The notes beneath the pieces were generated by a model. The model did not search any database. It had not been told where the DNA came from and saw only the letters and a list, made by a program, of their open reading frames with translations. The position numbers and the translations under genes are program-made. Below, in pieces: positions 8,381 through 43,927 of a stretch of DNA of 62,588 nt (position 1 is the stretch's first letter; every line of letters begins with the position of its first letter). Origin of the DNA: a bacterium (GTDB lineage: Bacteria; Elusimicrobiota; Elusimicrobia; UBA1565; UBA9628); assembly GCA_021810245.1 (NCBI GenBank), contig JAJZJF010000004.1, positions 1 to 62,588 on the forward strand, in the 5' to 3' direction.

Positions 8381-8446
8381 TAGGTCCTTTCCCAGGGCCC
8401 ATCTAGGCCTTTGGGGCTATGTTATTTTCCTTGGGCGTGGTATCAT
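8381..8446 (+). promoter_or_regulatory. phased TAGG direct-repeat module plus -10-like TATCAT (copy 1)
   Basis: TAGG at 8381 and 8404 (23 nt apart). Proximal 16-mer is TAGGCCTTTGGGGCTA. TATCAT at 8441-8446 lies 37 nt from the proximal TAGG. The downstream part GGGCGTGGTATCATAAGG resembles copy 4. Confidence 0.5.
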
Positions 8447-8559: not shown

Positions 8560-9402
8560 ATGAGAAAAGTTATATGGAATTTTTTGTTGATTCTTCTAGG
8601 GCTTCTTCTACTGCCTCACTCTGCCTTTGCTCATTTGAGTTTAGATTATAGTGAGGTGGCGCCCCTTTCTGGAGGTAGCGGTTGGAATCAGTTCAACTGG
8701 AATGCCGCTTGGAATTCCTCCAAAAGCGGATTTGGAATATCTTTTTCCAACTATTACGCCGATTTCACTCATGGCAACTATCAAACTACAGCTCTGAGCG
8801 CCAACCATCAATTTGGATCTCAAACACTCAAGGCGCTCATTGGCTTAACCCCCAGCAATAATGGTTATGGCAATTCTTTTTTTCAGCTGGAAAACAGCTT
8901 TCCCCTAATGGACAATCATCTGCATGTATCGGGAGGGCTCACGCGAATTAACTATTGGGACAATCAAAATAGCGCAACCGCTAGCGCTACAAACGCCCAA
9001 ACTGATGTTCTTGAAAAGATCCATTGGGACATTGATTGGGGTAAAATAGAATTAGAGTCAATCCAATCTTTATACGATAAAAACCCCGATCTCACGGACA
9101 TCAGGGCGGTGTTTGATCAGGAAATTGGCGGAATGACCGCGCCTTTCTGGGGATTGTGGCCAAGCATTAGTTCAAAAATAAATCTTCAATCTAATCCTTT
9201 GTTTGGCGGAATATCTCCATTTATTTCTTACGTCCACACGACCTTGCGGCTTGGATTGCCAAGCTGGGACTCATATACGGCAGGTTTGGCCCTCAACTTA
9301 AAACTAGGCACGATTTCTCTTTCATATTCCTACTGGGATCAACCCACTTATTTTCCGCATGCCAATTATCTTTTCTTCGATATCAGCTTAAAAAGATTTT
9401 AA
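8560..9402 (+). CDS. hypothetical exported protein, probable outer-membrane beta-barrel
   Basis: Signal peptide MRKVIWNFLLILLGLLLLPHSAFA. Aromatic/Gly/Asn-rich alternating sequence with a C-terminal Phe (ISLKRF). Confidence 0.6.
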   Translation: MRKVIWNFLLILLGLLLLPHSAFAHLSLDYSEVAPLSGGSGWNQFNWNAAWNSSKSGFGISFSNYYADFTHGNYQTTALSANHQFGSQTLKALIGLTPSNNGYGNSFFQLENSFPLMDNHLHVSGGLTRINYWDNQNSATASATNAQTDVLEKIHWDIDWGKIELESIQSLYDKNPDLTDIRAVFDQEIGGMTAPFWGLWPSISSKINLQSNPLFGGISPFISYVHTTLRLGLPSWDSYTAGLALNLKLGTISLSYSYWDQPTYFPHANYLFFDISLKRF

Positions 9403-10598
9403 TGAGCGGGTTTTTCTTGCGCGGTCAGAGAAGCCCAAGCTTCATCGGCGGTGTCTACGATTTTAAAAAGCGAAAGGTCTTGCGGCGAGATAACTCCCAT
9501 TTTCGAGAAAGACTTGAAATTGAGAATCTGATTCCAATATTTTCTTCCGACCAAAACGATGGGAACGCGCGGAATTTTTCCGGTCTGAATCAAGGTGAGG
9601 GTTTCAAAAAGTTCATCCATGGTTCCAAAGCCTCCGGGGAAAAACGCCAGGGCTACGGCCCCGCGGCGAAGATTGATTTTTCTGGGAGCGAAATTATCAT
9701 AAATGAAATTGAGTCCGTGGGTAATATAGGGGTTTGAAGATTCTTCGTGCGGAAGGCGAATCGTGTGTCCGATAGAGGTTCCGCCGGCCTCAAAAGCCCC
9801 GCGGTTGGCCGCTTCCATGATGCCGGGGCCGCCTCCGGTCGCGACGGCGATTTTACCGGCGCTCTCTCGTGCGACAATTTGTCCAAATCGATAAGCCTCT
9901 TCATAATACTTTGACATGCTCAAGTTTTGACGGGCTAATTTGAGCGCTTCCTGAACATTTTTGTCATCAGGATTAAGTCGCGCCAAAGCCAAGGCTTTTC
10001 TGTGTTCGGCAAGAGCCTTTTGCCGCGGCAGAAGCCGCGCGCTGCCGAAAACGGTAATCGAGGCGGAAACTCCTCTTTTTTGAATTTCTTGCGGAGCCTC
10101 CACGATTTCATGGGCGAATCTTTCGCCTTCGCCGATATCCGCAACGGGATAGCTTTGAGTTCCATCAATAAAATGAGAGAGGGCTCCAAGGGAGTTTGAC
10201 TTTTTTAAGGAACCGGCCAATTGAGTGAGAGGAGAAGCCGCTTTTTTCTCCAATTTTTTGAGGGTCTTGTTAGAGGCAGATTGCGGAATCTCCACCGCGG
10301 CAGGGGTGTTTCCATCGCGCGCCGGCAAAAGCGCGGGTTCCGGTTCTTTTTCTAAAGCTGGGAGAATTTTAGGCATTTCCCGTTCGCTGGGGGAAATGGG
10401 TGCTTCAAGAGAACCCTCGTTTAAAGAGCTCTCCGGAAGGGATAGGGGGTTTTGCAGGACAATCGCGGGGAGAACGGGAACTCCTCCATCCACGTCGCGC
10501 CCTTGCGGGGCTTCTAAGGCCGCAAAAGAGGGCCTTGTGCTCAGAATTGAGAGGATGATAAACAGGGGCATTTTGAGGTGAAGTTTTTGTGTTTCCAT
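9399..10598 (-). CDS. LOG family (TIGR00730-type) nucleotide phosphoribohydrolase with signal peptide and ~170-aa N-terminal extension
   Basis: C-terminal half has LOG motifs ITVFGSARL, VATGGGPGIMEAANRGA, PGGFGTMDELFE. The N-terminus has a hydrophobic signal (MPLFIILSILSTRPSFA) followed by a Pro/Glu/Ala-rich linker. Confidence 0.8.
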   Translation of the reverse strand: METQKLHLKMPLFIILSILSTRPSFAALEAPQGRDVDGGVPVLPAIVLQNPLSLPESSLNEGSLEAPISPSEREMPKILPALEKEPEPALLPARDGNTPAAVEIPQSASNKTLKKLEKKAASPLTQLAGSLKKSNSLGALSHFIDGTQSYPVADIGEGERFAHEIVEAPQEIQKRGVSASITVFGSARLLPRQKALAEHRKALALARLNPDDKNVQEALKLARQNLSMSKYYEEAYRFGQIVARESAGKIAVATGGGPGIMEAANRGAFEAGGTSIGHTIRLPHEESSNPYITHGLNFIYDNFAPRKINLRRGAVALAFFPGGFGTMDELFETLTLIQTGKIPRVPIVLVGRKYWNQILNFKSFSKMGVISPQDLSLFKIVDTADEAWASLTAQEKPAH

Positions 10599-10604
10599 AA
10601 CGTA

Positions 10605-10674
10605 AGGGTAAGCGAATCGGAGGCTTTGGGCCTGGGCCAGAGGGCCTAGAGGGCTTCCGGCAAAAGACCTATCC
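10605..10674 (-). promoter_or_regulatory. phased TAGG direct-repeat module plus TACCCT, 6 nt before ATG 10598 (copy 2)
   Basis: On the minus strand, TAGG starts at 10671 and 10648 (23 nt apart). Proximal 16-mer is TAGGCCCTCTGGCCCA. It is 38 nt to TACCCT (10610-10605), then TACGTT, then ATG. Confidence 0.55.
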
Positions 10675-20960: not shown

Positions 20961-20998
20961 ATCATGATTCTACATTAATATTGTAAAATCAAGAAGTT

Positions 20999-24011: not shown

Positions 24012-24514
24012 AATATCTTGGAGGCTGGCGGTTTCGCGGAGGATATACCCTCATAGAAATCATGGTAACGGTCGCGATCGTGTCGGTCGTGGCCGCTTTG
24101 ATTTCTCCTTTGTTGACTAATATGACGAGTTTTTGGCGGCTGACCCAGGCTCGAGCGGTCATTGAACGAGACGCCCGCGTGTCCATGGACTTAATGAACC
24201 GCGCCATTCGTCAAGCGCAGAGTTCGACGATTCTTATCTCTAATTATCCGCAACAACCACCCTATTCCGCCATCAGCTTTACCGATATCAAGGGAAATTC
24301 GGTCTCTTTCTATCAACAGGGAAATTATCTCTACGAAAAATTCAACACCACCATCTCGATGTTGACGAAAAATTTAGAATTCGTTTCTTTTACTTTTCCA
24401 GACAGCTCGGACCCCGGCATTTTGTCGGTGGCGATGACGACCCAGAAAAGCACCTATTTGGGCCGCAGCAAGGCTTTGGAGCTGTCTATCGAAGAAGTGC
24501 GGGTAATGAACTGA
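24008..24514 (+). CDS. pseudopilin / minor pilin (prepilin-type N-terminal domain)
   Basis: 168 aa. GGYTLIEIMVTVAIVSVVAAL motif with Glu at +5. Start overlaps the upstream stop. Confidence 0.8.
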   Translation: MKYLGGWRFRGGYTLIEIMVTVAIVSVVAALISPLLTNMTSFWRLTQARAVIERDARVSMDLMNRAIRQAQSSTILISNYPQQPPYSAISFTDIKGNSVSFYQQGNYLYEKFNTTISMLTKNLEFVSFTFPDSSDPGILSVAMTTQKSTYLGRSKALELSIEEVRVMN

Positions 24515-25779
24515 TGAAAAATTTATCGAAGAATCAGTCGCCTGGACAAATTTCAATTGGAGCGATGGCTCTTTTGGTTGGACTGATGATTTTAGGCGCC
24601 GCGATGGTTTCTTATATTGTCTATGAATCAAAATGGACCGTCAAGGAACAGAAAACGACCACGGCCTTTCAGTTGGCCGAAGCCGCGACCGAGCGCGGCT
24701 ATTGGGAGATCAGCCAATTGAGCTCTCCAACGGCCAATATTCCCATTGCCGGATATAATTTTGACCAGGAATATAACGACCTTGCCGGCGGGGCCTACGC
24801 GATTCAAATCTCCAGCGACTCCTCAAGCGATATCATCATCACCGGCATCGGACGGGACAATCTAAAAAAGGAAACTCGTGAAATTCAGTCTTTATATGAA
24901 AATGGGGGCGGCGGAAAAAACGCGATCGTCGGCGGAGGAGGGGTGGATGAGAGCGGAACGAATATGCATGTTGAGTGGGGGGCGATTATCAGCCAAAGTT
25001 CGATGACAGCGAATTCTTCAAGGCTTCACCCGTCGTTGTGGAGCAGCGGCGAAATCGCGCCTTTTGATACCAGCAATACTCCGCCTAACTGCGATTCTCC
25101 CAATTGTTGGTGGTGGCATGCTTATGACTCTAATTTGCCTCCGATGCCTTCTCTTAACTTCAATTATTATGAGAATCTGGCCCAGTCCGAGGGCGCCAGT
25201 CCTTGCGGCGGCAGTTACTACACCAACGGGAATCGATCGGGGGGCTGTAATGATTTAAGCGGGAACACTTATTACGTAACCGGCAACTGGACTTCGTTTG
25301 ACGGCCCTATAACGGGCAATGTCATTGTGTTGGGAGACGTGACGACTCCTAATGGAGCTCTTAGCGGAGCATCCATTAATGCTCCCATGCCGCAAAACGC
25401 ATGGGCGCAATACTGCAATGATTGGAATTTTTATCTAACGACTTATAACGACACCTACGCCCAATCTCACTATCCAAGCAATTGTCCGGGGCTCAGCAGC
25501 AGTTATTTGTCCTCGCCTTCCATCACCTATTCCATCAGTCCGGCCGTTCAAGGGCTTCTTTATGTGGGAGGCGATTTTACCGGGCCCAACGGCGGAGGAA
25601 ATAGCGTTCTTGTGTTTGGAGTTTTAATGGTCGCCGGAAAGGTCCATCTCAATTCTAATTCCCACGTCGCTGTTTATTATGACGCGAATGTCGGCAATAA
25701 TCTTAAGGTTACCAAGACCAGCTACTCGCGGGTTTCATGGAAGGAAATTCAGCCGGTCTGGCCAAGTGGGCTGCCGTAA
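24514..25779 (+). CDS. PilX-like large pseudopilin
   Basis: 421 aa. N-terminal hydrophobic helix without Glu5. PilX_N-like TTAFQLAEAATERGYWE. Gly/Asn/Trp/Cys-rich C-terminal region. Confidence 0.7.
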   Translation: MKNLSKNQSPGQISIGAMALLVGLMILGAAMVSYIVYESKWTVKEQKTTTAFQLAEAATERGYWEISQLSSPTANIPIAGYNFDQEYNDLAGGAYAIQISSDSSSDIIITGIGRDNLKKETREIQSLYENGGGGKNAIVGGGGVDESGTNMHVEWGAIISQSSMTANSSRLHPSLWSSGEIAPFDTSNTPPNCDSPNCWWWHAYDSNLPPMPSLNFNYYENLAQSEGASPCGGSYYTNGNRSGGCNDLSGNTYYVTGNWTSFDGPITGNVIVLGDVTTPNGALSGASINAPMPQNAWAQYCNDWNFYLTTYNDTYAQSHYPSNCPGLSSSYLSSPSITYSISPAVQGLLYVGGDFTGPNGGGNSVLVFGVLMVAGKVHLNSNSHVAVYYDANVGNNLKVTKTSYSRVSWKEIQPVWPSGLP

Positions 25780-26392: not shown

Positions 26393-26588
26393 AGAAGAGA
26401 AGCTCGGTTTTCTGGAAGATGCGCAGTCGTTAGAACGCCGAAAGGATTTTGATCGGATGCGAGAAAACGTTTTTTCTCGCCGATGGACTCCTGAAGAGCA
26501 TGCGTCATTTCTAACGGCGATGAGCCGACATTTCGGGAGCCAAATTAGACATCCGATTCCCGTAGACAACGGGAAGTTCCTCATTTAG
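26382..26588 (+). CDS. hypothetical small protein
   Basis: 68-aa ORF overlapping the upstream gene by 11 nt. Its TAG stop is the first triplet of repeat copy A. Confidence 0.4.
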   Translation: MFSKEEKLGFLEDAQSLERRKDFDRMRENVFSRRWTPEEHASFLTAMSRHFGSQIRHPIPVDNGKFLI

Positions 26589-26680
26589 GCACTTTCGCCG
26601 TCGCCAACAGCTTTTCCCAAGCAAAATCTCGAAATACCTCTAGGCCTTTTGCCGGAAGCCCTCTAGGTCCTTGGGCCCAT
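26586..26680 (+). repeat. 95-bp intergenic repeat, copy A (3' element plus TAGG promoter module, copy 3)
   Basis: TAGGCACTTTCGCCGTCGCCAACAGCTTTTCCCAAGCAAAATCTCGAAATACCTCTAGGCCTTTTGCCGGAAGCCCTCTAGGTCCTTGGGCCCA. About 90 percent identical by eye to copy B. TAGG at 26641 and 26664. TATTCT at 26702-26707 is 38 nt from the proximal TAGG. Confidence 0.85.
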
Positions 26681-26714
26681 GCGAGAAATAAAGATGCGTG
26701 ATATTCTCTTTATG

Positions 26715-27269
26715 ATGCAACATAAAGAACATGGAGGAGTAAAGATGCAAAACAAAAAAAAGTTGATGGGAGTTATCTACTTTTTGACAATGTCAATGTC
26801 CCTATCGTTCCCCTCTCAGGCTGCAAATATCGGAGGCGATGCCGCTTTTGCTAAGGATATTCAAAATGACTTTAAAGCGATTAATGCAAGAGTTCTTTCC
26901 CTAAAAGAGAGTGCCCGGCATGAGGATAAAAGGGCGGTTAGCAATCAAATTCTCAATACGAAATCGCTTAAAGATACATCTGTTAAAATGGCTAATCCAC
27001 AACAAGAATCCCAGTCATTCAATATAGAAACCTATACACATCTCCCATTGTGCGTAAAAAGTAACACTGCCAATGCAGTTTCAGTAGTTTTCTCTTTGCC
27101 GCCTAACGCAGGGAATAGTTGCATCGCAAATTTTGAGCTGACAGGTGACGGGGGACTCTGTTGGCAGGTTTGTTCTGAAGACTGCAATGGGAGTGGCGCC
27201 TGTTGGTTGTCGTGTACCTATCATTGCACCACTCAGGGGGGAGAGGGGGATCCGAGAAAACATGGATAA
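26715..27269 (+). CDS. secreted cysteine-rich protein, unknown function
   Basis: Signal peptide KKLMGVIYFLTMSMSLSFPSQA. The last ~70 aa contain 9 Cys (CIANFELTGDGGLCWQVCSEDCNGSGACWLSCTYHC). Start is ambiguous: ATG 26715 lies 7 nt after TATTCT (leaderless), and ATG 26745 has a GGAGG RBS. Confidence 0.65.
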   Translation: MQHKEHGGVKMQNKKKLMGVIYFLTMSMSLSFPSQAANIGGDAAFAKDIQNDFKAINARVLSLKESARHEDKRAVSNQILNTKSLKDTSVKMANPQQESQSFNIETYTHLPLCVKSNTANAVSVVFSLPPNAGNSCIANFELTGDGGLCWQVCSEDCNGSGACWLSCTYHCTTQGGEGDPRKHG

Positions 27270-27297
27270 GTTAATCTCTTTCTAGTTAGAGTATTTT

Positions 27298-28089
27298 GTG
27301 GCAGTATCAGTGGTAGGGAAAAGGAGAGTTCTTATCCGCAAGGAATTAGCAGAACTTGCGGTGTTTTTCTTTGTTATTCTCCTCCCGGCTATATCATCGA
27401 GTTTCCACTCTCTTTTCCTTAAACAACAAGGTTTTGATTACGCGAACTTATATTCTCCGTGGGGATTTTTTAATCAAATTCAAGCGAGCATTCCTCTTGG
27501 CCTTCTTGCCGCTTTTTTATTGGTCTACGGGGATCATGATCCGTCTTATTTAGCTCTCCGTTCCAGTAAATTATCCGTCATTAGACAAATTATGGCGGGT
27601 GTAGGGCTCTGGTTTGTCTATTATCTTTTCTTCACTCTCTGGGATGTTGTCGCCGCTCTCGCTCAAATCCATGTCCCTCATATTAATTTTCATTCCGCAA
27701 CCCCTCTTCCTCAGGAGACCATGCTGAATGGCGTGTTTGCTTTAGTCAACGGCATTTCTGAAGAGGTTATGCGGGTATACCTTCTAGCCCAAATTGGGAA
27801 ACTAACGACGCGGCGTTGGGCGGTAATCCTTATAACCGCAATTTTGATTTCTTCCTATCATTCTTATCAAGGCGGGTTTACCCTGATTGCTTTTCTTGTT
27901 GCCAATATTTTTCTGAGTTCTTTCTACCTCTCTTCCCAATCTCTCTTGGCGCTTTGTGTGTGGCATATCTTGGCCGATTTTTCGCATCCGACGGCTCTTA
28001 TGGGCTGGAATGTGCTCAGTGGATTCATTGGAGGTTCTTTCATCATAGGAACTAGCTGGGTTTTTGGCCATCTGGGGATAAAGATTTAA
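27298..28089 (+). CDS. CPBP family intramembrane glutamic endopeptidase (CAAX protease/Abi-like)
   Basis: Polytopic membrane protein with the CPBP motifs EEVMRVY (EExxxR), SSYHSYQG and WHILADF (HxxxD). Confidence 0.75.
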   Translation: MAVSVVGKRRVLIRKELAELAVFFFVILLPAISSSFHSLFLKQQGFDYANLYSPWGFFNQIQASIPLGLLAAFLLVYGDHDPSYLALRSSKLSVIRQIMAGVGLWFVYYLFFTLWDVVAALAQIHVPHINFHSATPLPQETMLNGVFALVNGISEEVMRVYLLAQIGKLTTRRWAVILITAILISSYHSYQGGFTLIAFLVANIFLSSFYLSSQSLLALCVWHILADFSHPTALMGWNVLSGFIGGSFIIGTSWVFGHLGIKI

Positions 28090-28115: not shown

Positions 28116-28210
28116 TAGGCGCTTTCGCCGTCGCCAACAGCTTTTCCCAAGCGAAATCTCGAAATACCTCTAGGCCTTTTGCCGGAAACCTTCTAGGCCC
28201 TTTGGCCCAT
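28116..28210 (+). repeat. 95-bp intergenic repeat, copy B (3' element plus TAGG promoter module, copy 4)
   Basis: Same element as copy A. TAGG at 28171 and 28194. It is 38 nt to TACAAT (28232-28237), then 7 nt to ATG 28245. Confidence 0.85.
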
Positions 28211-28244
28211 CCATATTTTATGGGCGTGGCATACAATAAGGGTC

Positions 28245-29564
28245 ATGGCGAAAAGCAAGAACGCGGTCGCAGCGGCGTTATTTTTAGCGTTCGCCGCGTC
28301 CTCGACAATCCGAGCGCAAGAATTAAATTGGGATCGGGGCGCTGATATTGAGGCGATGACGGCGGGCTTGAGTAAAAAATTTCCTTCCGTTAAAGCGACA
28401 TTGGTGAGTGATGGGGGGGGGGATAATCCGGGAATTCCTTCTTCATCTCTAGCGGCTCCGCCCCTCTACGAATTGGAACAGGCGACATCGGGAGATGGAG
28501 GAATTTACTTTTTTAGCGTCGCGGGAAATCATCCCGTTGACAGTTCTGGAAATAATCTCGCCGTTTTTACTTATGATTTCGATGAAGCCGCGTATGAAGA
28601 AAACCAAAAATTAAATTACGCAATGGAGCACGGAGTCTCCTCTCTTGACTCATGGAGCGGGCTTGAGGACTCTCAAATACGCGAGGCTCAATCAAATTAT
28701 GAAAATTGGACCTTTGGCAGCAATGTCGCTGTTTATGTCGCCCCTGACTTATCCATGGATCATGTTGACTCGATCAGCGTTTGGATCGATCCGGGAGGGC
28801 GGATTCATAGCCTGGATACTTTGCGGCGACAACTGAAGTTCCGAGTGTGGTATGGGCGGCATCGATTGTACGAACATTCTGATTTGACGATGGGAAGACA
28901 AAACGTTTTCCATATGCAAGCTCCGGCGATTACGGAAATCATGGATCGTGACACGTTGGATATTCCGCTGATGAAGCTCGAATGGCGTTATGACGAGGTC
29001 TACCGTTCTTTCCTCGAGCATTGCGGGCAGGCTTCGGCTTCGGGGTGTTCGGGGTCGCCTTGGCCTAACGAATTCTTTAAGCATTGGGCCGAGGCTCTTG
29101 ATGCCGCTCGCGGCGCTTTAGACAATTTGGCGAATTTATTAGCCTCGGTTCCGTTCTCCAAGCCTATTTCCATCAACGCTTCCGTCGCGCCGTTAATGAG
29201 CGAGTCTTCCGGAAATCAATATGGCGGATTATCTCTTTCATTCCCAGGTTTTTCACGTAAAGAGTTGGTCGGAATGTTGAACGGGCGTTCGCCGCAAAAC
29301 GATCCAATATCGCCTTGGGGAGCTACGGATAGAAATCAGTCAAGTGTGGAAATATGGTCGCGCAATCTTCCCAATCCTCAATGCGACGAGGAGAAAACAA
29401 GTTGCTTAATCGGACTCCCTCCGGCTTCCGATGAACCTGAAAATCAAGTCGTGGAATTTATTGATCCCAGTTCCCTTTCCCAAAACTTGATTGAATCCAT
29501 TCAAGAATCAAGACATGCCGCTGATAACGCGCTTCAAAACGCCGAAGCCCTTGCCTCGCCATAA
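28245..29564 (+). CDS. hypothetical exported protein
   Basis: 439 aa. Signal peptide MAKSKNAVAAALFLAFAASSTIRAQE. No recognisable domain. Contains a G10 homopolymer at 28413-28422. Confidence 0.65.
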   Translation: MAKSKNAVAAALFLAFAASSTIRAQELNWDRGADIEAMTAGLSKKFPSVKATLVSDGGGDNPGIPSSSLAAPPLYELEQATSGDGGIYFFSVAGNHPVDSSGNNLAVFTYDFDEAAYEENQKLNYAMEHGVSSLDSWSGLEDSQIREAQSNYENWTFGSNVAVYVAPDLSMDHVDSISVWIDPGGRIHSLDTLRRQLKFRVWYGRHRLYEHSDLTMGRQNVFHMQAPAITEIMDRDTLDIPLMKLEWRYDEVYRSFLEHCGQASASGCSGSPWPNEFFKHWAEALDAARGALDNLANLLASVPFSKPISINASVAPLMSESSGNQYGGLSLSFPGFSRKELVGMLNGRSPQNDPISPWGATDRNQSSVEIWSRNLPNPQCDEEKTSCLIGLPPASDEPENQVVEFIDPSSLSQNLIESIQESRHAADNALQNAEALASP

Positions 29565-29570
29565 TAGCCC

Positions 29571-30446
29571 ATGAAAAAAATCGCGCCGATATTTTTCAGC
29601 TTTTGCATCGCGCTCGGCGCGGGAATTTTCATTTGGGCGATGCGCCATCCCCATGCGCCGGTTTTGTCGCCTGATGTTCGGAGCAAACACCCCAGCGTCT
29701 CGGCTCAAAAGGGGCCGCTCAAACTAACCCTGACTCTTTATTCCGATAAGGTTCCGAGAAATGGACCGCTCTGGTTTCGCCTGACCGTGACCAATGTCGG
29801 CAAAAAACCGTTTACGATTGACGATCCTTTGTTTGCCCCGTATTTTTTAGATGATGGGGAAAATCTCATCGATTATTTAAGCGACCCCTTCAAGAAAAAG
29901 AATTCGTTCCATTTAGTCGTCCTTGATGATAAAGGAAGGGAAGTCGCTCAAAAATACCAGACCGTTTGGGCGATGGAAATGGACCCTTGTATTGGATTTC
30001 CCGACAATTCATTTGAGAGCGAACTCCTGTCCAAGGCTCAACGCCGCAAGTCAAGAGCCCAATTTAAGGAACGGGCTATTGCGGAGAAAGATTTTAAGGC
30101 TAATTGGAAACGCCTTGTGAGTCCCGGAAGCTCCATCGAAACAATCGCCTGGTCTTATCACGGCTACTGCAAGGGCGAGCGCAAAAACCCTCCGATTCCG
30201 CCGGGGCGTTTCGCCGAATTTTACGGCTTGGACCTAAGTCGCCCCGGGCATTACCGCATCTTTGCCGGCCTCAACCACGTTCCAACGAAAAAGGAGTTGG
30301 AAGAGAAAAAAAAGGAAGATCAGGATGCGTTGGAAGTTGATAAGAAAATGGGCTGGAAATCCGATTGGTATGGAAGGAAGTCCATTCCCCGTGCGGAGGA
30401 CGCCGTTATTCAAACGCCGCCCATTGATTTCGAGGTTCTCCCATGA
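29571..30446 (+). CDS. hypothetical membrane-anchored protein
   Basis: 291 aa. N-terminal TM IAPIFFSFCIALGAGIFIWA. No recognisable domain. Confidence 0.6.
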   Translation: MKKIAPIFFSFCIALGAGIFIWAMRHPHAPVLSPDVRSKHPSVSAQKGPLKLTLTLYSDKVPRNGPLWFRLTVTNVGKKPFTIDDPLFAPYFLDDGENLIDYLSDPFKKKNSFHLVVLDDKGREVAQKYQTVWAMEMDPCIGFPDNSFESELLSKAQRRKSRAQFKERAIAEKDFKANWKRLVSPGSSIETIAWSYHGYCKGERKNPPIPPGRFAEFYGLDLSRPGHYRIFAGLNHVPTKKELEEKKKEDQDALEVDKKMGWKSDWYGRKSIPRAEDAVIQTPPIDFEVLP

Positions 30447-30949
30447 GATATTTTTTGATTTTCTATATTTCTCTCATGGGGGTTTCTCCCGCGCTTGCCC
30501 TCTCATTTCATGCGCCCAAATCAGATAAGGAGAGATATGAATTTCAACTGGCTGAAAAGTACTTGTCCAAAATCAAGGAAATAAATAACGATCTTGAGGA
30601 TAACAAAAACAAGAAGAAAAGTTTAAGCGACGCGGAAATCGAGAAAGACAAAATCCAGCGCCAGATGATTGAGGAATACACGATCAAGGCGGTGATCGCG
30701 GCTTATGGAATTAAGCCAAAACATGAAACAGGAACGCTTTATCTTGGGCAGCTCTCGGGCAGCCAGGCCGTTCGGTGGGACCCTGTTTTGAGCGAGCGGC
30801 GACAATCGTGCGCGGCATCTCCGCTCCGTTTGTCGCGGTTGGAAATTCCATCACTGTCCTATCGCCCGGGAATTCCGGCGGCTCAAATTTCCAATATCAT
30901 GCCGGGCTTGCGGACAGCCAATTGCGCGGAATCGCGAGCGGGAGCATGA
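30443..30949 (+). CDS. hypothetical exported protein, possibly frameshifted
   Basis: Signal-like N-terminus MRYFLIFYISLMGVSPALA. After about codon 110 the frame becomes Arg/Ser/Pro-rich, while the overlapping frame 30775..30969 reads more protein-like. Confidence 0.45.
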   Translation: MRYFLIFYISLMGVSPALALSFHAPKSDKERYEFQLAEKYLSKIKEINNDLEDNKNKKKSLSDAEIEKDKIQRQMIEEYTIKAVIAAYGIKPKHETGTLYLGQLSGSQAVRWDPVLSERRQSCAASPLRLSRLEIPSLSYRPGIPAAQISNIMPGLRTANCAESRAGA

Positions 30950-30966: not shown

Positions 30967-31012
30967 TAGGCGCTTTCGCCGTCGCCAACAGCTTTTCCCA
31001 AGCGAAATCTCG
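30967..31012 (+). repeat. intergenic repeat, partial copy C (3' element only)
   Basis: TAGGCGCTTTCGCCGTCGCCAACAGCTTTTCCCAAGCGAAATCTCG is identical to the first 46 nt of copy B. It lies between convergent genes. Confidence 0.85.
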
Positions 31013-31016: not shown

Positions 31017-32507
31017 TTACGGCCACGCCTGCGGCTTGATGTCTTGCCAATCGGTTTGGACCAAGACCACATTTAAAGTTGGAACTTGAAGTTGGTCGTT
31101 GTAGAAAATACCGCAGAAACTGCTCAGACAATTCGGGTCTCCCGAGGGACAGCTGGCGATGACGGATCCTCCCACCCAAACCGCGCCGTTAAAATCCATA
31201 AAATTCTTGATGATGAGATTGCCGCCGACATAGGTAAATCCCCTGATCCCTACGGTGTTGACCCAGCCGCAGGTCATCGTATTGGGGGGATGGCTTGGAA
31301 AACAAAATGAATTGGTTCCGAAAGCCCAGGTGGTAGCGCTTTGGTGGTATCCAATATCGGCGGGATATTCCCCACTGGCCGGAGTGTCATAGCGGGTTTC
31401 CGTAAATTTCTGATCCTGCTCCCAGGCGTTGGTTGGAACATGTCCGGTATAATCGTAATCGCCCCCGCTATCAATCGTTAGATTTCCACGCACGATGACT
31501 GTTCCTCTCAGGCCAGTGTCTAACCCGGCAGACGGCGCGGCCCCTTGTCCGGCAAAGGTGACGTCTCCATCCCAATACCAGACATAATCGGTATTCGGCT
31601 GATTTTGAGGCGAGAATGGATGATTCCAGGAATTTCCAAAATGACAAGAAGAACCGTAACAGGCTCCTCCAGTTCCAGAATAGTGCGGAGAGCCGGATTG
31701 ACAATGGCCGCGATTGTCCCAAGGCGCTCTTCCCGACATATTGGCCCCGGTTGTGGGATCGGTATAACGGGTACTGTCTCTACAGCCATAGACGTTGAGG
31801 GTATGGGTCGCGGCAGCGGAAGAGCGGAGAGCGGCGAAATCAAGTATGGGCAATTCTGGAACCTTGGCATAATTGGCCCACCATTCGATGCCGTCAGTAT
31901 TGGGGGGCAGAGGCCAGGTCGTGTCGCGCGGATTATTAGTGGTTCCGATAACGTCTCCTCTTGCGTATTTTTGCGGAAAATACCATTGGGCGGTGGTGTT
32001 GTCAAGCGTGATATTGCTTTGGGAAATAATAGGGCCCCAGAAAATGCTGATGCCTTTATTGTAATTGACGTTTCCCTGGGTCAAAAGCGGGCTATAGACC
32101 GTTTCATTTTGAAAAACCGCTTCGATTTCTCGCAGTTCATTATTGGAATTATCGCGTCCTTCTCCGAAAATGGTAATCCCCCCGTTGGCGGCCGAGGTAA
32201 TGAGAATTCGGTAAGTTCCGCCGGGGATATCGCTGTAGGTTTTGTCGAATTGATATCCTGGAAACGCGATTCCGGAAGACATCTCCGCGAAAGTTCCAGT
32301 TGAGCTTTTAGCCTTCCAATAGCCGCGATTGACGGCCGCTTCGGCGAGATTTAAAGCCGTGGTTGATTTCTGGTTTTTAACCGAGGTCCGCGCTTCCGTC
32401 TGAACCCATTGGACCACCGCCGGCACAATCGCCAAGAGGAGAAGCATTAAAAGGAGAGCCCCAACCAAGACCTGGCCGCGCTTTTGTGCCCAAAGGTTTT
32501 TTCTCAT
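31017..32507 (-). CDS. PilX-like large pseudopilin (paralogue of 24514..25779)
   Basis: 496 aa. N-terminal helix VLVGALLLMLLLLAIV. PilX_N-like STTALNLAEAAVNRGYWK. Shares ...REIEAVF / REIQSLY and the C-terminal layout with the cassette 1 protein. Confidence 0.7.
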   Translation of the reverse strand: MRKNLWAQKRGQVLVGALLLMLLLLAIVPAVVQWVQTEARTSVKNQKSTTALNLAEAAVNRGYWKAKSSTGTFAEMSSGIAFPGYQFDKTYSDIPGGTYRILITSAANGGITIFGEGRDNSNNELREIEAVFQNETVYSPLLTQGNVNYNKGISIFWGPIISQSNITLDNTTAQWYFPQKYARGDVIGTTNNPRDTTWPLPPNTDGIEWWANYAKVPELPILDFAALRSSAAATHTLNVYGCRDSTRYTDPTTGANMSGRAPWDNRGHCQSGSPHYSGTGGACYGSSCHFGNSWNHPFSPQNQPNTDYVWYWDGDVTFAGQGAAPSAGLDTGLRGTVIVRGNLTIDSGGDYDYTGHVPTNAWEQDQKFTETRYDTPASGEYPADIGYHQSATTWAFGTNSFCFPSHPPNTMTCGWVNTVGIRGFTYVGGNLIIKNFMDFNGAVWVGGSVIASCPSGDPNCLSSFCGIFYNDQLQVPTLNVVLVQTDWQDIKPQAWP

Positions 32508-32508
32508 G

Positions 32509-33000
32509 TTAATTCATGACCTCGACTTCTTCAGACGCCATATGAAGGGCTTTGCTCCCTCCTTGGTAAATTCCGGATTGAAAGGTGACCGACACGGAAA
32601 TAATATTCATATCATCGGATCGCGGGAAAGTGAACGCGAGATAGATGAGGTCTTTGGATAAGACCTTGGTCATATTGCCCGACTGCATCTCAAGAAGATT
32701 ACCATTTTGGAAAAAGCTCATGGTCGTTCCCTGGGAGGTGGTAAAACTGATCTGGGAATAATAAGGTTGGCTTGAGGAATAGCGGCTAAGCGTAATTGTC
32801 GAACTCTGCGCTTGCCTTAGATTGCGGGTAATCACGTAGAGAATACTCCGGCCTTCTTCTTGGAGTTGAACCTTCGCGTTAGACAACATAAAGTAGCGAT
32901 TGGCTTCTATGGTGATCCCAGCTCCGACAGAAATCAGGGTTCCGACAATGGCAAGCGTGATCATCGCTTCAAGCAGGCTAAATCCGTTTTTTTTCACCAT
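32509..33000 (-). CDS. pseudopilin / minor pilin (paralogue of 24008..24514)
   Basis: 163 aa. Classical prepilin motif KNG-FSLLEAMITLAIVGTLI. Ends ...EEVEVMN versus ...EEVRVMN in the paralogue. Confidence 0.85.
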   Translation of the reverse strand: MVKKNGFSLLEAMITLAIVGTLISVGAGITIEANRYFMLSNAKVQLQEEGRSILYVITRNLRQAQSSTITLSRYSSSQPYYSQISFTTSQGTTMSFFQNGNLLEMQSGNMTKVLSKDLIYLAFTFPRSDDMNIISVSVTFQSGIYQGGSKALHMASEEVEVMN

Positions 33001-35546
33001 GATAGATTTTGTCCCGAGACTGTTTGGCCTTGCAGTATGGAAACGTTAGACAACGATTGGGTGACGACGCTAATGGCCCCCGAAGGCAAAATTTCCGGAT
33101 AATATCCGTAGACATTGTAAGCTGGAGAGGTGCTTTGCCTGACTTGGAGGCTAAAGGTCCCATCTTCCTTGCTTGAAGTCGAGTAGTAAGAGATTCCGGT
33201 TAAAGATGCGGAGCTAAGATTGGGCGGGCCGCTGGGCAAGGTATCGGTCGTCACCACGATCAGAACGCCGGTGGATATGGGGTTTCCCTTGTAAGTCACG
33301 TTCCCGCTGATCGTTCCCAAGGCCCCGGTGATGGTAAATGTTCCCACGAAAACAGTTTGGCCTGAAAGAGCGTTGGCCGAAACGACCACGGGATTTGAAA
33401 CCTCAGTGCTGTCGAGCGGAATGCGCACGGTATAGGTTCCCGTGGCAAGGTTGACCGTTTGGAAATGCCCGGTGGCATCGGTCACTTCTTGATCTTGAGT
33501 GTTTCCATTAGAATCAATGGCGCTCATGGGAATTCCCTCAAGACCGTTGATTCCGTCCCGGGTCACCCATCCGCTGAGCCGGCCGCCTTGGGTCAGAGTA
33601 AAGTTGATCCCGCTTTCAATTTGACCCGGCAAGACCGTGATGGCATTAGAAGACATTGAAACATAATTGGCGTTCAGGGAAGATGGGTTAGCCGTGACAT
33701 CGGTCATTCCACTGGAAACGCGCAATAAATATCTTCCAGTTGAAACGTTAGCGAAGCTATCTGATCCCGCGGCGGAAACTTCGATGGCGGTCGGTATTGA
33801 AATGGGATTGCCGTTGGCGTCGGTCACGGTTCCCGAGATAAAGCCGGAATTGGGAGTTTGATTGAGAATGCTCATCGTGCTTGGAAAAACATAGACGGAA
33901 TTGGAAGCGGCGATGGTGACGCTGTCATTTTCCGTCTCGTAAGATGAACTGGTAATCACCACGCTCCAGGTTCCGGTCGCCACATTAATGAGGTTGAAAG
34001 CGGCCGCCGGAGGATTCCCGGAAATAAATGCCTCGGTTGAGGAAGAGAGCCCGTCATTCGATGTGATGACCGCCCCAATGGCGGGAACTCCCGCGATGAC
34101 GGTTGTGCCAGGAAGCAAGGAATCATTAGGCGGATATTGGATGCCTATCGTAGACAAGGCCGGATTGGCGTTTCCGGGATAGGCGAAATCAGCGGCATTG
34201 TTTCCGGAATTATAGGCGCGCCCAAATGCGGCGCTCGCGAAAGCGGGGCTCGATGTCCTCACGATTTCTTGTCCGGCCGCAAGCCCGCCGCTGGGCTGCG
34301 GGATGCAGGTTCCATTACAGTAACTAGGATTATGCGTTGATCCGTTGTTGGTCCATCCCACCGCGTCTATCGTGTTTCCGGAAGCATTCGTTATCCAGAT
34401 CGTTCCACTGTGTCCGCGCGCCATGATGTCTTCCGCCGAGGGCGGAGTCCAGTTGTAAGCGGAAGGCGTGCAGCTGAGATTGGCGTTATCGGCGTAATAG
34501 GCGTCGGCGGAAATTGAACTACCGTCAACCGTAAAGGTCGCGGTGTTGGCGATTAAATAATACTCCTCCGGCGCGATATTATCCGTGACGTAGGTCAAGG
34601 GGATGTTGGAGCATTGGGTGGCATTATAGCCGGAAACGTAGTTGAGTTCGATATTTCCGTTAATTGCGATTGTATTAGTCGTCGGATTGAAGAGTTCGAC
34701 ATATTCCACGTCATAGTCATTGGCTTGGGGGGTTGAAACGACGATTTGACTGATGACGAGATTTGGCTCAATCCAAGCGTCTCCAGTGACTGTTCCAGAA
34801 CTCATCGGAGTCAGGGAAAAATTGACCGTGATGGTGTTGTTCGCGGGAACGGATTGAAAAGAATACCCCGTGAAATATCCCGGGGCGGAGGCGACTAAGT
34901 TAAAACTTCCGGGAGACAGCGAAATCGAATAGAGGCCGGAGGCATTGGTTAAGCTGCTCCAACCGAGATCTTCGGCGACGTCTACGTTGGCGCCGGCGAT
35001 AGGGTTTCCCGTTGTCGCGTCCGAGACAGTTCCGGTCAGTGAAGAATTTGCCTCCACGGTATCCGGGTTGGACATCACGCTGTTTAAGGAAAGATATTGC
35101 GTTTGACTGTCTTGAGTCCAGGTGACGGTGACGGTAATTTGGCGCATTCCCGTGTCCGGAGTGGTCGGGGGGAGAGTCGTCAATGTCCCATTTTTATCCA
35201 TCACCACTTGAATATCGGTGTAGCGCGTAAAATTAACCCCGCCTTCAAGGAGCGTTTCCGGAGGGAAATTGACCGTATCGTAAGGCGTTCCATTGGACAA
35301 AAAAGAAGGGTTAAGAGTTGGAATGACGTTAGGGTAGGACTCCTCTTCTATGATTTGAATCTGTTCCTGCGCGAGGTTGGCGGCGAGGGTTTTATCCCGA
35401 GACATTTGAATTGAACGCTGAACATCCCGAAAAGACGCGACCAGCCCTAAAGTCGCCACTGAAAGAATGCCCAAGGCGATCATCATTTCAACCAGGCTTG
35501 CCCCGCCCTGGCTTTTTAAGGCATTTTCGCCTTTTAAATGCCCCAT
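32994..35546 (-). CDS. giant prepilin-type (PilV-like) protein with lamin-tail domain and CarboxypepD_reg-like repeats (paralogue of 21357..24011)
   Basis: 850 aa. GG-ASLVEMMIALGILSV, LAANLAQEQIQII, LTGTVSD..GANVDV..GLYSISLSPGSFNLVASAPGY. LTD signature LVISQIV...VEYVELFNPT. Confidence 0.8.
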   Translation of the reverse strand: MGHLKGENALKSQGGASLVEMMIALGILSVATLGLVASFRDVQRSIQMSRDKTLAANLAQEQIQIIEEESYPNVIPTLNPSFLSNGTPYDTVNFPPETLLEGGVNFTRYTDIQVVMDKNGTLTTLPPTTPDTGMRQITVTVTWTQDSQTQYLSLNSVMSNPDTVEANSSLTGTVSDATTGNPIAGANVDVAEDLGWSSLTNASGLYSISLSPGSFNLVASAPGYFTGYSFQSVPANNTITVNFSLTPMSSGTVTGDAWIEPNLVISQIVVSTPQANDYDVEYVELFNPTTNTIAINGNIELNYVSGYNATQCSNIPLTYVTDNIAPEEYYLIANTATFTVDGSSISADAYYADNANLSCTPSAYNWTPPSAEDIMARGHSGTIWITNASGNTIDAVGWTNNGSTHNPSYCNGTCIPQPSGGLAAGQEIVRTSSPAFASAAFGRAYNSGNNAADFAYPGNANPALSTIGIQYPPNDSLLPGTTVIAGVPAIGAVITSNDGLSSSTEAFISGNPPAAAFNLINVATGTWSVVITSSSYETENDSVTIAASNSVYVFPSTMSILNQTPNSGFISGTVTDANGNPISIPTAIEVSAAGSDSFANVSTGRYLLRVSSGMTDVTANPSSLNANYVSMSSNAITVLPGQIESGINFTLTQGGRLSGWVTRDGINGLEGIPMSAIDSNGNTQDQEVTDATGHFQTVNLATGTYTVRIPLDSTEVSNPVVVSANALSGQTVFVGTFTITGALGTISGNVTYKGNPISTGVLIVVTTDTLPSGPPNLSSASLTGISYYSTSSKEDGTFSLQVRQSTSPAYNVYGYYPEILPSGAISVVTQSLSNVSILQGQTVSGQNLSW

Positions 35547-35552
35547 CTTAGA

Positions 35553-35580
35553 AGTGTAACAGACAAATATCGGAAGTCAA
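35553..35580 (-). promoter_or_regulatory. sigma70-type promoter of pilin cassette 2 (apparently leaderless)
   Basis: On the minus strand: TTGACT (35580-35575), 16-nt spacer, TACACT (35558-35553), then TCTAAG and ATG at 35546. Confidence 0.65.
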
Positions 35581-35626
35581 TAGATATCGGCAATGGGAGA
35601 GAAACTGATAAAATACAGAGGTCTCT

Positions 35627-41665: not shown

Positions 41666-42895
41666 TTGAGATACTGGTTCTTTGACGGGAAGGGCCCGAC
41701 GGGGCCGTTTGAAGAAGAAGAACTCAAGAACCTCCCGGGCTTTAACTCCAAGAGCCTCATTTGCCCGGAAAACGCGCAGAGTTCCAACCAATGGAAACCA
41801 GCTCAATATTATCTCATTAAGCCGCCTCCGCAAAAAGCGCGTGCGGAAGCTCAGCTTCCTGAAAAAACCCGGATGGGTCGTTTAGCCGATCTCGAAGAAG
41901 CCGAGGCGGCGAAAAAAGACACAGAAAGCGAGTCTCAAAAATCTCAAGCGCAAAATCCGCCCTCTCGGAAAACGGGGCTTAAAATACTCTTTCTCTCTAC
42001 GCTGCTTGCTTGCGCTGTTTACTTTTCTCCAAGATTCATTTCTTTTTTCAGTTCTCGCATCCAGGCGTTCAAGTCGCCTTCTATAGCTTCTTCAGAGACT
42101 CAAGATAGGGGCTCTCAGGCCATTGAAATAGCCAAGGCTTTTCCCATAATGCCTCCAGATAGAAGTTACCCGGGGCGTATTGAAGATATCCTCTTGCCTT
42201 CAAAATGGAAAATTCCTAAAAACTTGGACGCGTTGCTTGAGGGAAAAGCGCTAGGCGCTCTTTCTCTTGAGACCCTTATCCTTTTGAAAGCGGAGGGCTT
42301 AAGCCCCATTTTCGGAGGAAAGTTAATCGCCCAAAACCCTCAAGAGTGGAAAAATTGGGGGGGAACCTTTCTTGAAAAAAACCTGGCTTTTCAGTGGAGC
42401 TCTTTTTCTCTTCCCAATTCCCATGTCCGCGTGGAAGCCTCTTCTCCATCGCCATGGTCCTTGGCCGGCAGAAAAGACATTTTTGATTGCGACGTTAAAA
42501 ATAAGACGCTTAAGCCCCTTAATTTTAATGCCTGGTTTGATTTGGAGCCCCGCGCGGCCAAGGCTTGGGCGGCTCAAAACAGGCTTTTTTGGCATGCGGC
42601 CGATGAACCACTCACAGAGGCCCCGGCGTATTCTGTAGCCGAGATGGATCAGAAATTGAAGGCTCATAAGCCCACATCCATTCGGGCGCCCACAAGGCCT
42701 TCTTCTCCTAGGCGCCCTGTTTCGCCAGAAAACCCAATTCCTAAACCTCAGAAAGTGGTTTTGCCCAAAACGCCTGGAAATTCTGGAAGTCCACATAAGA
42801 ATGCCGCGAATATGAGCTTAGATGAGCTCAATCGCTACCTCAATCGCGCCCAAGGTCAAGCTCCGAGCTCTAATTCCCCTCAAAACCCACACTAA
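41666..42895 (+). CDS. hypothetical protein with N-terminal GYF_2-like domain, one TM helix and Pro-rich tail
   Basis: YWFFDGKGPTGPFEEEELKNL resembles the GYF_2/DUF4339 domain. TM helix LKILFLSTLLACAVYF. TTG start, so the start is uncertain. Confidence 0.55.
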   Translation: MRYWFFDGKGPTGPFEEEELKNLPGFNSKSLICPENAQSSNQWKPAQYYLIKPPPQKARAEAQLPEKTRMGRLADLEEAEAAKKDTESESQKSQAQNPPSRKTGLKILFLSTLLACAVYFSPRFISFFSSRIQAFKSPSIASSETQDRGSQAIEIAKAFPIMPPDRSYPGRIEDILLPSKWKIPKNLDALLEGKALGALSLETLILLKAEGLSPIFGGKLIAQNPQEWKNWGGTFLEKNLAFQWSSFSLPNSHVRVEASSPSPWSLAGRKDIFDCDVKNKTLKPLNFNAWFDLEPRAAKAWAAQNRLFWHAADEPLTEAPAYSVAEMDQKLKAHKPTSIRAPTRPSSPRRPVSPENPIPKPQKVVLPKTPGNSGSPHKNAANMSLDELNRYLNRAQGQAPSSNSPQNPH

Positions 42896-42911
42896 GGGCC
42901 CAGAAAAGCTC

Positions 42912-42955
42912 TAGGCCTTTGGGCCCAGGTATGAGAAGCGTTTTTCGTTTATCCT
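42912..42955 (+). promoter_or_regulatory. TAGG proximal motif plus TATCCT, 6 nt before ATG 42962 (copy 5)
   Basis: TAGGCCTTTGGGCCCA at 42912. It is 38 nt to TATCCT (42950-42955), then TGAAAT, then ATG. The distal TAGG is degenerate. Confidence 0.5.
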
Positions 42956-42961: not shown

Positions 42962-43927
42962 ATGAGGAAAATGATGGTGGCAGTTCTTCTCGCCTTAGGA
43001 GTTTCCACTGCCCATGCGCAGCTGGGATCAGTCATCTCCGCGCCTTCCCGTCCCGCCAATAAACGCTCTGGTTCCGCGATCGCCAAAGCCATTCAAAATA
43101 GAAATTCTGTTCAAAGAGACAATCTTAAAGGGCTTAAGCGTTGCCAGAAAAATGTCGGTTCAACTCATTTTGATTGTTTGAGAAGGGAAATATCGAAACT
43201 GGGAAAAAAATCTAAAGTCTCTATGCCAAAGACTGTTCCTCTCCATAGACCCCAAGCGAGCTTTGTTTTAAGCGCGAGATTTTTAGCCCCCAAGGCCTCT
43301 CACTTTTCTCTTCCCAAGACAACCCCAATCGCGGTTAAAAAATCAAAAGTTTCCATTCCGGAACCATTGATTCAAAAAATGCTTTCTACTGAAAACCAAA
43401 ATGCAGCGGCGCGCCAAAACCCCTTCAGTCAGATGGAAAATCAATTTGTCTCCGCTTTTAGGAAAGCGAAATCTGGCGTCTTAAAAATTCCAAGTTATAT
43501 CGAGAGCTTGGTTTCTTACTATGCTAAAAAATACTCCGTTGACCCTAATTTGGCCTTGGCCATGGTTAAACAGGAAAGCGGTGGCAACCGCTACGCGGTT
43601 TCAAAAGTAGGGGCAATGGGGCTTGGGCAATTGATGCCTCAAACCGCCCGTCGTTTTGGGGTCACTAATCCCTTCGATCCTAGGCAAAATATCGCGGGCA
43701 TGATCCGCTACCTAAAATTTTTGCGGCAGAAGTTTCATGACGATGAGGTTTTAATGGTCGCGGCTTACAATAGCGGCGAGGGAAGAAAGGCTTTTCGCTA
43801 TGGTCTTATTCCGCGCTTTCATGAAACCATTGATTACGTCAAAAAAGTTTTTGGAAACTATTTTCGCTTAACCGGAGAAAAAGTCGATTATAAAAACCGG
43901 ATAGCGCCGCAGCATCTTGAGGCTTAG
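42962..43927 (+). CDS. lytic transglycosylase (SLT domain) with signal peptide
   Basis: Signal MRKMMVAVLLALGVSTAHA. SLT motifs MVKQESGGN, GAMGLGQLMP, AAYNSGEG. Confidence 0.85.
   Translation: MRKMMVAVLLALGVSTAHAQLGSVISAPSRPANKRSGSAIAKAIQNRNSVQRDNLKGLKRCQKNVGSTHFDCLRREISKLGKKSKVSMPKTVPLHRPQASFVLSARFLAPKASHFSLPKTTPIAVKKSKVSIPEPLIQKMLSTENQNAAARQNPFSQMENQFVSAFRKAKSGVLKIPSYIESLVSYYAKKYSVDPNLALAMVKQESGGNRYAVSKVGAMGLGQLMPQTARRFGVTNPFDPRQNIAGMIRYLKFLRQKFHDDEVLMVAAYNSGEGRKAFRYGLIPRFHETIDYVKKVFGNYFRLTGEKVDYKNRIAPQHLEA

Follow-up and report, generated by a model that had tools for sequence, protein, structure and literature searches.

A conserved TAGG box at a fixed distance from the -10 hexamer precedes exported-protein genes in a clade of Elusimicrobia and may be an activator docking site

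A 62,588 nt stretch of contig JAJZJF010000004.1 (assembly GCA_021810245.1), hereafter the window, comes from an Elusimicrobiota lineage (UBA1565; UBA9628) and contains five copies of a 16 bp sequence, the TAGG box, each situated upstream of an exported-protein gene and at a near-constant distance from a -10-like hexamer. The same module is found in several related Elusimicrobia metagenome-assembled genomes (MAGs). We propose that one Elusimicrobia clade has its own special class of sigma-70-type promoters, for which the TAGG box would serve as upstream recognition element and as the docking site of an activator; we give this interpretation, drawn from comparative sequence analysis, a probability a little below 60 %.

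The proximal boxes begin at positions 8404, 26664, 28194 and 42912 on the forward strand and at 10648 on the reverse strand. A second TAGG lies exactly 23 nt upstream at four of the five sites (8381, 26641 and 28171, and 10671 on the reverse strand), and the site at 42912 is without this direct distal unit. Hexamers starting at +38 from the proximal TAGG are found at four sites (TACCCT, TATTCT, TACAAT and TATCCT), with TATCAT beginning at +37 at site 8404, and in-frame ATG codons follow the hexamer at all sites except 8404 (10598, 26715, 28245 and 42962). This arrangement, first reported in a preliminary description of the window, was found at the same positions when the sequence was re-examined. 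The components of the five promoters are listed below, in which loci from other genomes or metagenomes carry L-numbers, SLT denotes the domain of the lytic transglycosylase encoded downstream of 42912, and scores in bits are from a position weight matrix (PWM) built on sites of other genomes.

28194..28209, + strand: proximal box TAGGCCCTTTGGCCCA, predicted centre about -42.5, 28.5 bits
28171..28186, + strand: distal box TAGGCCTTTTGCCGGA, 23 nt 5' of the proximal box, predicted centre about -65.5
28232..28237, + strand: -10-like hexamer TACAAT at +38, followed after 7 nt by the ATG at 28245, a leaderless candidate
28116..28170, + strand: 55-nt companion repeat (TAGGCGCTTTCGCCGTCGCCAACAGCTTTTCCCAAGCGAAATCTCG...), directly 5' of the boxes
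26641..26679, + strand: paired TAGG boxes, distal at 26641 and proximal at 26664, 26.3 bits
26702..26707, + strand: -10-like hexamer TATTCT, preceded by TGA (extended -10)
10633..10671, - strand: paired TAGG boxes, the proximal running from 10648 to 10633 and the distal from 10671 to 10656
10605..10610, - strand: -10-like hexamer TACCCT at +38, followed after 6 nt by the ATG at 10598, a leaderless candidate
8404..8419, + strand: proximal box TAGGCCTTTGGGGCTA, the weakest of the five, 19.6 bits
8381..8403, + strand: atypical 'distal' unit TAGGTCCTTTCCCAGGGCCCATC, a 23-nt tandem duplication absent, by alignment, from the orthologous promoter of L025
8438..8446, + strand: extended -10 TGGTATCAT, hexamer at +37, identical in L025 and in site b of L002
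8446..8549, + strand: about 104 nt inserted between -10 and ATG relative to L025, whose ATG stands at +53
42912..42927, + strand: proximal box TAGGCCTTTGGGCCCA of a single-box site, 29.8 bits, kept before SLT orthologues in five genomes
42892..42903, + strand: inverted partial upstream unit CTAAGGGCCCAG, overlapping the TAA stop codon (42893-42895) of a gene for a 409 amino acid (aa) protein
42950..42955, + strand: -10-like hexamer TATCCT at +38, with the ATG at 42962 (+50) invariant in six genomes

As an earlier degenerate pattern had been fitted to the window sites, the specificity of the motif was assessed in a non-circular manner with a PWM derived only from eight sites of other genomes. 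This matrix ranked the five window sites first (19.6 to 29.8 bits), followed by the distal units of the same sites (15.1 bits) and a background not exceeding 12.9 bits. Across 200 simulated windows the maximum score averaged 13.3 and reached 20.9 at its highest, such that the weakest site, at 8404, does not exceed every simulation. All five sites fall within the 7.5 % of the window outside long open reading frames (ORFs), each co-oriented with the adjacent gene; no window copy was found inside a gene, the copies are not randomly oriented, and relatives retain the element. No further sites were detected in the approximately 19.5 kb of flanking sequence from the same genome, leaving five in about 82 kb. 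A 27-nt pattern with 19 specified bases was also searched against 185,579 reference genomes (596 Gb) and against metagenomes. The former yielded four places, all within three MAGs designated 'Elusimicrobia bacterium' and none in another phylum, and the latter four more, of which three were convincing; the remaining match, L006, lacks the proximal box and looks like a chance occurrence. Of the loci from this search, only L003 corresponds by orthology to one of the window sites.

When 13 independent sites were aligned with the proximal TAGG as position 0, a series of conserved blocks emerged: TAGG from -23 to -20, TTTGCCGGA from -16 to -8, CCnTCTAGG from -4 to +3, TTnGGCCCA from +7 to +15, gTG from +34 to +36 and TA...T from +38 to +43, with the conserved patches spaced by about one helical turn. 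The 16 bp consensus of the proximal box is T-A-G-G-n-C-y-T-T-n-G-r-C-C-C-A. The distal box has the form TAGGyCyTTTGCCGGA, of which GCCGGA is strongly conserved across genomes, and is found in direct orientation 23 bp upstream at twelve sites. At 42912 and its orthologues, as well as at L002c and L008b, the upstream unit is instead inverted, with centres 25 bp apart; the unit is partial in the window, and L019 has a full inverted unit at the place matching 42892..42903. In L025, the orthologue of the gene at 8560 has the proximal box alone, which there scores 26.6 bits. Because the upstream partner may be direct, inverted or absent, the proximal box appears to be the core of the element and the upstream box auxiliary.

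The relationship between box and hexamer is similarly strict. TAnnnT begins exactly at +38 in eight of the 13 independent sites (P = 8e-14, from a background of 0.0095 per position), the others having near-matches at +37 or +38, and the centre of the box lies 30.5 bp before the first -10 base (29.5 bp at 8404). Most hexamers are preceded by TGn, forming an extended -10; exceptions include 10648, 42912 with all of its SLT orthologues, and L002c, none of which has a -35 either. Nothing resembling TTGACA was found 17 nt 5' of the hexamer at any site (+15 to +20 from the TAGG), where the sequence varies between sites. Elsewhere in the window there are canonical promoters, TTGACA-N17-TACACT before 21357 and TTGACT-N16-tgtTACACT before 35546 on the reverse strand, and as these have spacers of 16-17 nt, the housekeeping promoter type appears to be normal in this genome. 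If transcription is assumed to start 7 nt after the hexamer, the proximal and distal boxes would be centred at about -42.5 and -65.5. The preliminary description had suggested a shared regulatory site between about -40 and -75, and the evidence supports a promoter element common to these genes and fixed in position, which would span about -35 to -73.

Comparison with relatives indicates which parts of the module are maintained. Orthologues of four of the five window genes retain the element, the most distant sharing 51-57 % protein identity. In five other genomes the SLT orthologue (84-57 % identity) is still preceded by the proximal box, scoring 21-28 bits, with the hexamer at +38 and the ATG at +50, and the bases in between change. 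Likewise, the two boxes at a distance of 23 nt, together with hexamer and ATG, are preserved at the LOG orthologues (80, 69 and 51 % identity), and the 22-nt spacer before the hexamer is constant in length and unrelated in sequence. The proximal box is also kept before the orthologue of the 280-aa gene in L025, and L003 retains the 28194 box at the orthologous junction between the genes for the Rce1-like and 439-aa proteins. In a distant control (L028, an Elusimicrobia genome of 64 % GC) no element was present upstream of the LOG homologue. Such a pattern, in which the boxes, -10, start codon and spacer length would be under constraint and the spacer sequence would not, is a textbook phylogenetic footprint.

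It might be supposed that these promoters are alike only as recent copies, spread by promoter reuse or as a small mobile repeat, with no regulator in common. Promoter reuse is documented in prokaryotes (PMC3575422), and the copies at 26.6 and 28.2 kb do sit within a 95-nt direct repeat, 94 % identical, that precedes two non-homologous genes of one genome much as putative mobile promoters do. The 55-nt part of this repeat directly 5' of the boxes recurs at 26586-26640 (96 % identical), and its first 46 nt at 30967-31012; it has no counterpart at the orthologous place in L003 and was detected in this species alone, and together with the 23-nt tandem duplication at 8381 it distinguishes the window from close relatives. 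Unlike reused promoters, however, at most TAGG sites the resemblance stops at the boxes and the -10; spacer (22 nt) and flanks are unrelated between sites and diverge between orthologues. As boxes and -10 are maintained at orthologous positions across species, selection on a binding site is indicated rather than recent copying. The strict position and orientation relative to genes and the retention of the motif between genomes with only 51-57 % protein identity likewise count against copying, as does the lack of hairpin potential: when the motif regions and the two inserts (55 and 104 nt) were folded, z-scores ranged from -0.64 to +0.80 relative to shuffled controls. Copying might thus explain how some sites originated, though not how they are maintained, and as a full account it is highly improbable.

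A REP/MITE-like repeat or structured RNA was similarly rejected, there being no stable hairpin, no Rfam match and a fixed distance before gene starts. At the Rfam gathering threshold the whole window contained four tRNAs only, and a permissive search of 8300-8620 returned no match. The 8446-8549 insert was considered as a tRNA relic, and its alignments to tRNA-Lys and tRNA-Glu were unconvincing. The third copy of the 55-nt repeat (30967-31012) lies between convergent genes and is followed at about 31008 by a decayed box-like sequence, TCTCGGTCTTTACGGCCA, scoring 11.9-14.5 bits.

In the mechanism we favour, a dedicated DNA-binding activator, probably a dimer, would occupy the proximal box and recruit or stabilise RNA polymerase in a class II manner, substituting for the missing -35 contact. 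Where present, whether as a direct repeat 23 bp away or inverted 25 bp away, the second box would be an auxiliary site for another copy of the activator. The predicted start of transcription is about 50 nt past the proximal TAGG, a position that at around half of the promoters would coincide with the A of the start codon and so generate a leaderless mRNA. The proteins of the regulon, exported or belonging to the envelope, would be unrelated to one another and for the most part specific to the lineage, with the lytic transglycosylase and the exported LOG-family protein among them. The sequences themselves show the motif with its geometry, conservation and gene association; start site, activating role and type of bound protein are inferred from them. 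Pfam scans of the genes around the sites in the window, L001, L002 and L008 identified no DNA-binding protein beside them. Regulators encoded in the window comprise an Rrf2 protein, an FNR-like member of the CRP family and a lone receiver domain, none of them tied to the motif.

Several observations weigh against an activator of this kind. The preference for activation over repression derives solely from the position of the box and the missing -35, and a TGn-extended -10, seen at many sites, can function without a -35, so that the box could modulate transcription rather than enable it. The distal right half, GCCGGA, differs from its proximal counterpart, meaning two proteins or two binding modes may act. 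Conservation in the proximal 16-mer is mirror-symmetric (positions 0-3, 5, 7-8, 10 and 12-15 conserved; 4, 6, 9 and 11 variable), and the pairs (0,15), (2,13), (3,12) and (5,10) are complementary in 11-13 of the 13 sites; yet the pair (1,14), A versus C, is complementary in only one of 13 and the orientation of the box is fixed at every site, neither of which is expected of a simple symmetric dimer site. Five sites in about 82 kb also extrapolates to many dozens per genome, which is a large number if the activator is specific but not if it is global. Finally, so strict a distance from the -10 is also compatible with a box that the polymerase holoenzyme itself recognises.

The first of these points raises the idea that the protein bound at -35 to -73 is a repressor or dual regulator, blocking constitutive extended -10 promoters until a signal is received. 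The TGn at most sites can make a -35 dispensable, the partial dyad symmetry of the proximal box is operator-like, and second sites of variable orientation and distance are common for cooperative repressors. Against this, 10648, 42912 with its SLT orthologues, and L002c, lacking both a -35 and TGn, would be very weak promoters if left to themselves, and repressor sites usually overlap the -10 or start and tolerate changes in position, whereas the TAGG box is fixed just 5' of the -35 place. Repression at these promoters seems improbable.

The last point concerns a box read directly by polymerase, through an alternative or lineage-specific sigma factor, or an additional sigma or alpha domain, recognising GGnCCCA or the entire box, with no separate activator involved. 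The box-to-hexamer gap is 22 nt in 12 of the 13 independent sites and all orthologues, and 21 nt once; this near-invariance, the fixed orientation, the high density of sites and the resemblance of the targets to an extracytoplasmic regulon are all in keeping with such an arrangement. However, the -10 is housekeeping-like, including the TGn, as at the canonical promoters of the window. Spacers of 22 nt are outside the range known for -35/-10 pairs of the sigma-70 family. An extracytoplasmic function (ECF) sigma promoter, GCCGGAA - 16 nt - GGCCCA, can be drawn only at direct-paired sites, fails at 42912, L002c and L008b, which are without the direct distal box, and leaves the +38 hexamer and +50 ATG unexplained. 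ECF promoters combine a GGAAC-like -35 with a GTC/CGTC-like -10 at a distance of 16-17 nt, transcription starting soon afterwards; here the element conserved next to the predicted start is TAnnnT at +38. Similarly, although TGGCCCA resembles the -24 element of sigma-54 (TGGCAC-N5-TTGC), GG-N10-GC is absent and the sequence 4-9 nt further downstream is unconserved between sites and orthologues. Direct reading of the box seems unlikely, and it is distinctly doubtful that a lineage-specific holoenzyme, with a dedicated sigma factor or an extra DNA-reading domain, defines a separate and often leaderless class of secretome promoters in which 22 nt part the box from a housekeeping-like -10.

Returning to the putative activator, its site can be compared with those of known regulator families. 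The 16 bp, partly dyadic box with outer T...A, held strictly at a predicted centre near -42.5 in place of a -35, is similar to the class II promoters of CRP/FNR proteins, at which the site is centred at about -41.5, and the optional second site further upstream recalls class III promoters. By contrast, the second TAGG site is 23 or 25 bp away rather than approximately 20 or 30 bp, and the box occurs in one orientation only, with one asymmetric pair. To our knowledge, the half-site TAGGnC / GnCCCA resembles no known consensus of the CRP/FNR family.

Alternatively, the paired boxes would cover about -73 to -35, much as the two bipartite direct repeats of AraC/XylS sites (araI1-araI2, and XylS at Pm) extend from about -72 to -35. 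The similarity extends to four patches that alternate as A-B-A'-B' at intervals of about one turn (TAGG / TTTGCCGGA / TCTAGG / TTnGGCCCA) and to a proximal unit that abuts the -35 position. Flexible AraC-type dimers tolerate an inverted upstream unit, and the upstream TAGG unit may likewise be inverted. The period is 23 bp rather than 21 bp, however, at least one orthologous promoter (L025) does without the upstream unit, and the proximal unit is dyad-symmetric in its conservation, unlike the typical bipartite A/B box. In the sequence examined, none of the genes was seen to belong to the AraC family.

Two partly dyadic sites near -65 and -42 are also reminiscent of LysR-type regulation, in which a recognition site at about -65 is combined with an activation site at -35 to -45. 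This family was rejected, as the distal box has no T-N11-A (its T and A are 15 nt apart), and no LysR-type gene is adjacent to the sites or divergent from them; the target set is also large and dispersed. The preliminary description had envisaged a tandem binder of the response-regulator type. The 23-nt direct pairs on which this was based are present, but the spacing is not obligatory given that units may be inverted or absent, and the OmpR/PhoB substructure is missing: the period is 23 bp with two alternating sequences (TAGG and TTTGSCSSA), and there is no 10-11-bp repeat of a 6-7-bp half-site.

The same description had regarded the regulon as one of leaderless transcripts, a characterisation that would apply to only a part of it. 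An ATG is found at +50 or +51 in six of the 13 independent sites (P = 8e-7), and its position is invariant in the SLT and LOG orthologue sets. At six other sites the start codon is 72-83 nt downstream of the proximal TAGG, and most of these are led by a Shine-Dalgarno sequence; L001 has only a doubtful TTG start at +226. Leaderless transcripts are a reasonable inference for 10598, 28245 and 42962, and leaderless starts are plausible for three or four of the window genes. At 26664 the choice is less simple: besides the in-frame ATG codons at 26712 and 26715 there is an ATG at 26745 that is led by GGAGG, and this last, 30 nt 3' of 26715, is the likelier start. The leader at 8404 is about 105 nt long. 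Comparison with L025 shows the extra length to be an insertion, at 8446-8549, through which the otherwise near-leaderless gene at 8560-9402 gained its long leader.

Leaderless mRNAs with a -10 situated 6-7 nt before the ATG are common in Actinobacteria and Deinococcus-Thermus (PMC3160421, PMC3898074), and the arrangement seen here, a TAnnnT 6-7 nt before an in-frame signal-peptide ATG conserved in orthologues, is comparable. It is not specific to TAGG promoters, as it also occurs with canonical -35 promoters. At 35547-35600 on the reverse strand the sequence reads TTGACT-N16-tgtTACACT-tctaag-ATG, the ATG being 6 nt past the -10, and at 20961-20990 on the same strand tgTAGAAT-catgat-ATG places an ATG 6 nt past a -10 in a promoter overlapping tRNA-Lys on the opposite strand. 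Leaderless initiation thus seems to be a general trait of the organism rather than something peculiar to the regulon. Public gene calls disagree on several starts: LOG is annotated as 390 or 399 aa, SLT as 317, 318 or 321, and the Cys-rich protein as 167 or 196. The affected genes are those at 9399-10598 on the reverse strand, 42962-43927 and 26679-27269, along with loci L010-L012, L016, L021 and L027, in the last of which the called start is 21 nt upstream of the conserved +50 ATG. Such discordance is consistent with gene finders mishandling leaderless starts. The division of the SLT orthologue of L018 (about 9742-10705) into two calls of 94 and 234 aa results from a run of N in the assembly, and is an artefact rather than a pseudogene.

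The genes downstream of the five window promoters are as follows.

8560-9402, + strand: 280-aa protein with a signal peptide and no Pfam family
9399..10598, - strand: exported LOG/TIGR00730-family protein, with a signal peptide and a long N-terminal region; LOG by Pfam
26745..28089, + strand: Cys-rich secreted protein (174 aa from the Shine-Dalgarno-led start), then an Rce1-like CAAX protease
28245..30949, + strand: operon of a 439-aa secreted protein followed by 291-aa and 168-aa proteins, all with hydrophobic N-termini
42962..43927, + strand: secreted lytic transglycosylase, SLT domain by Pfam

The identities originally given for the LOG and lytic transglycosylase genes are borne out by their Pfam families, and the signal peptides ascribed to the downstream proteins by signal-like N-termini, as judged with a crude hydrophobicity window; by this measure, all 13 first genes have a hydrophobic N-terminus of this type, against 30 of 65 window ORFs. 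The further description of the 280-aa protein as outer-membrane barrel-like could not be verified, a single-sequence AlphaFold model having an unusable pLDDT of 36.8. The 439-aa secreted protein is a near-orphan, with one homologue cluster only (65 % identity), and the targets at other loci are unrelated secreted proteins mostly without a Pfam family, followed on the same strand by genes among which are those for a DUF4384 protein, a tyrosine phosphatase, an M23 peptidase and a bactofilin. An all-against-all BLAST of the motif-driven proteins gave no matches, and the similarity of their promoters is therefore not a by-product of gene duplication. As many exported proteins of the window have no box, the putative regulon would be a subset of the secretome and not the whole of it. 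The LOG protein has a region of about 200 aa of low complexity before the enzyme domain, conserved in the clade; many Elusimicrobia LOG homologues are longer still (550-690 aa). Export is unusual for a LOG enzyme.

The segment between 25.8 and 31 kb contains two TAGG promoters together with the species-specific repeats and a gene for an AbiEii-like nucleotidyltransferase, and is bracketed by two diverged, inverted paralogous gene clusters (21357-25779 on the forward strand and 31017-35546 on the reverse) that encode a giant protein with a CarboxypepD_reg domain, a prepilin-type N_methyl protein and a 421/496-aa protein. The bracketed segment looks like a variable island, and the relatives L017-L020 differ beside dapB. 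Terminator-like palindromes are present in three intergenic regions (4478-4500, 8277-8299 and 18932-18962). Two are near-identical, AAAAAGGGACAGTCCCTTTTT, flanked by runs of A and T and apparently bidirectional; the third is 68 % identical and shares the AAAAAAGGGACAGTC arm, with a different loop. The FNR-like regulator (4656-5366), the only CRP/FNR protein of the window, looks like a generic FNR, with an N-terminal C-X2-C-X5-C and a helix with E..R, and is encoded close to cytochrome oxidase genes. These form a haem-copper oxidase cluster at 12160-15674, as judged from synteny with COX2, COX1, COX3 and COX4_pro calls in L025-L027, and there is a COX15/UbiA pair at 16083-17788. Regulator and oxidase cluster together point to oxygen-responsive respiration in this lineage.

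Elusimicrobia are known mostly from MAGs and their transcription signals are almost wholly uncharacterised; literature searches for promoter, leaderless or regulon motifs of the phylum gave nothing relevant. In kind, a transcription-factor-type site before a regulon is ordinary biology, and the TAGG box, although backed by unusually clean comparative evidence, is a new regulon signal in a poorly known phylum rather than a new kind of system. What it offers is a sharply defined motif, conserved across species and with a testable geometry, as well as evidence for leaderless starts in this clade. It enables the prediction of regulons by whole-MAG scans, the correction of start codons and the design of a bait sequence for the regulator, and it provides a first sketch of a regulon in this clade, one that would unite a lytic transglycosylase and an exported LOG-family protein with many orphan secreted proteins.

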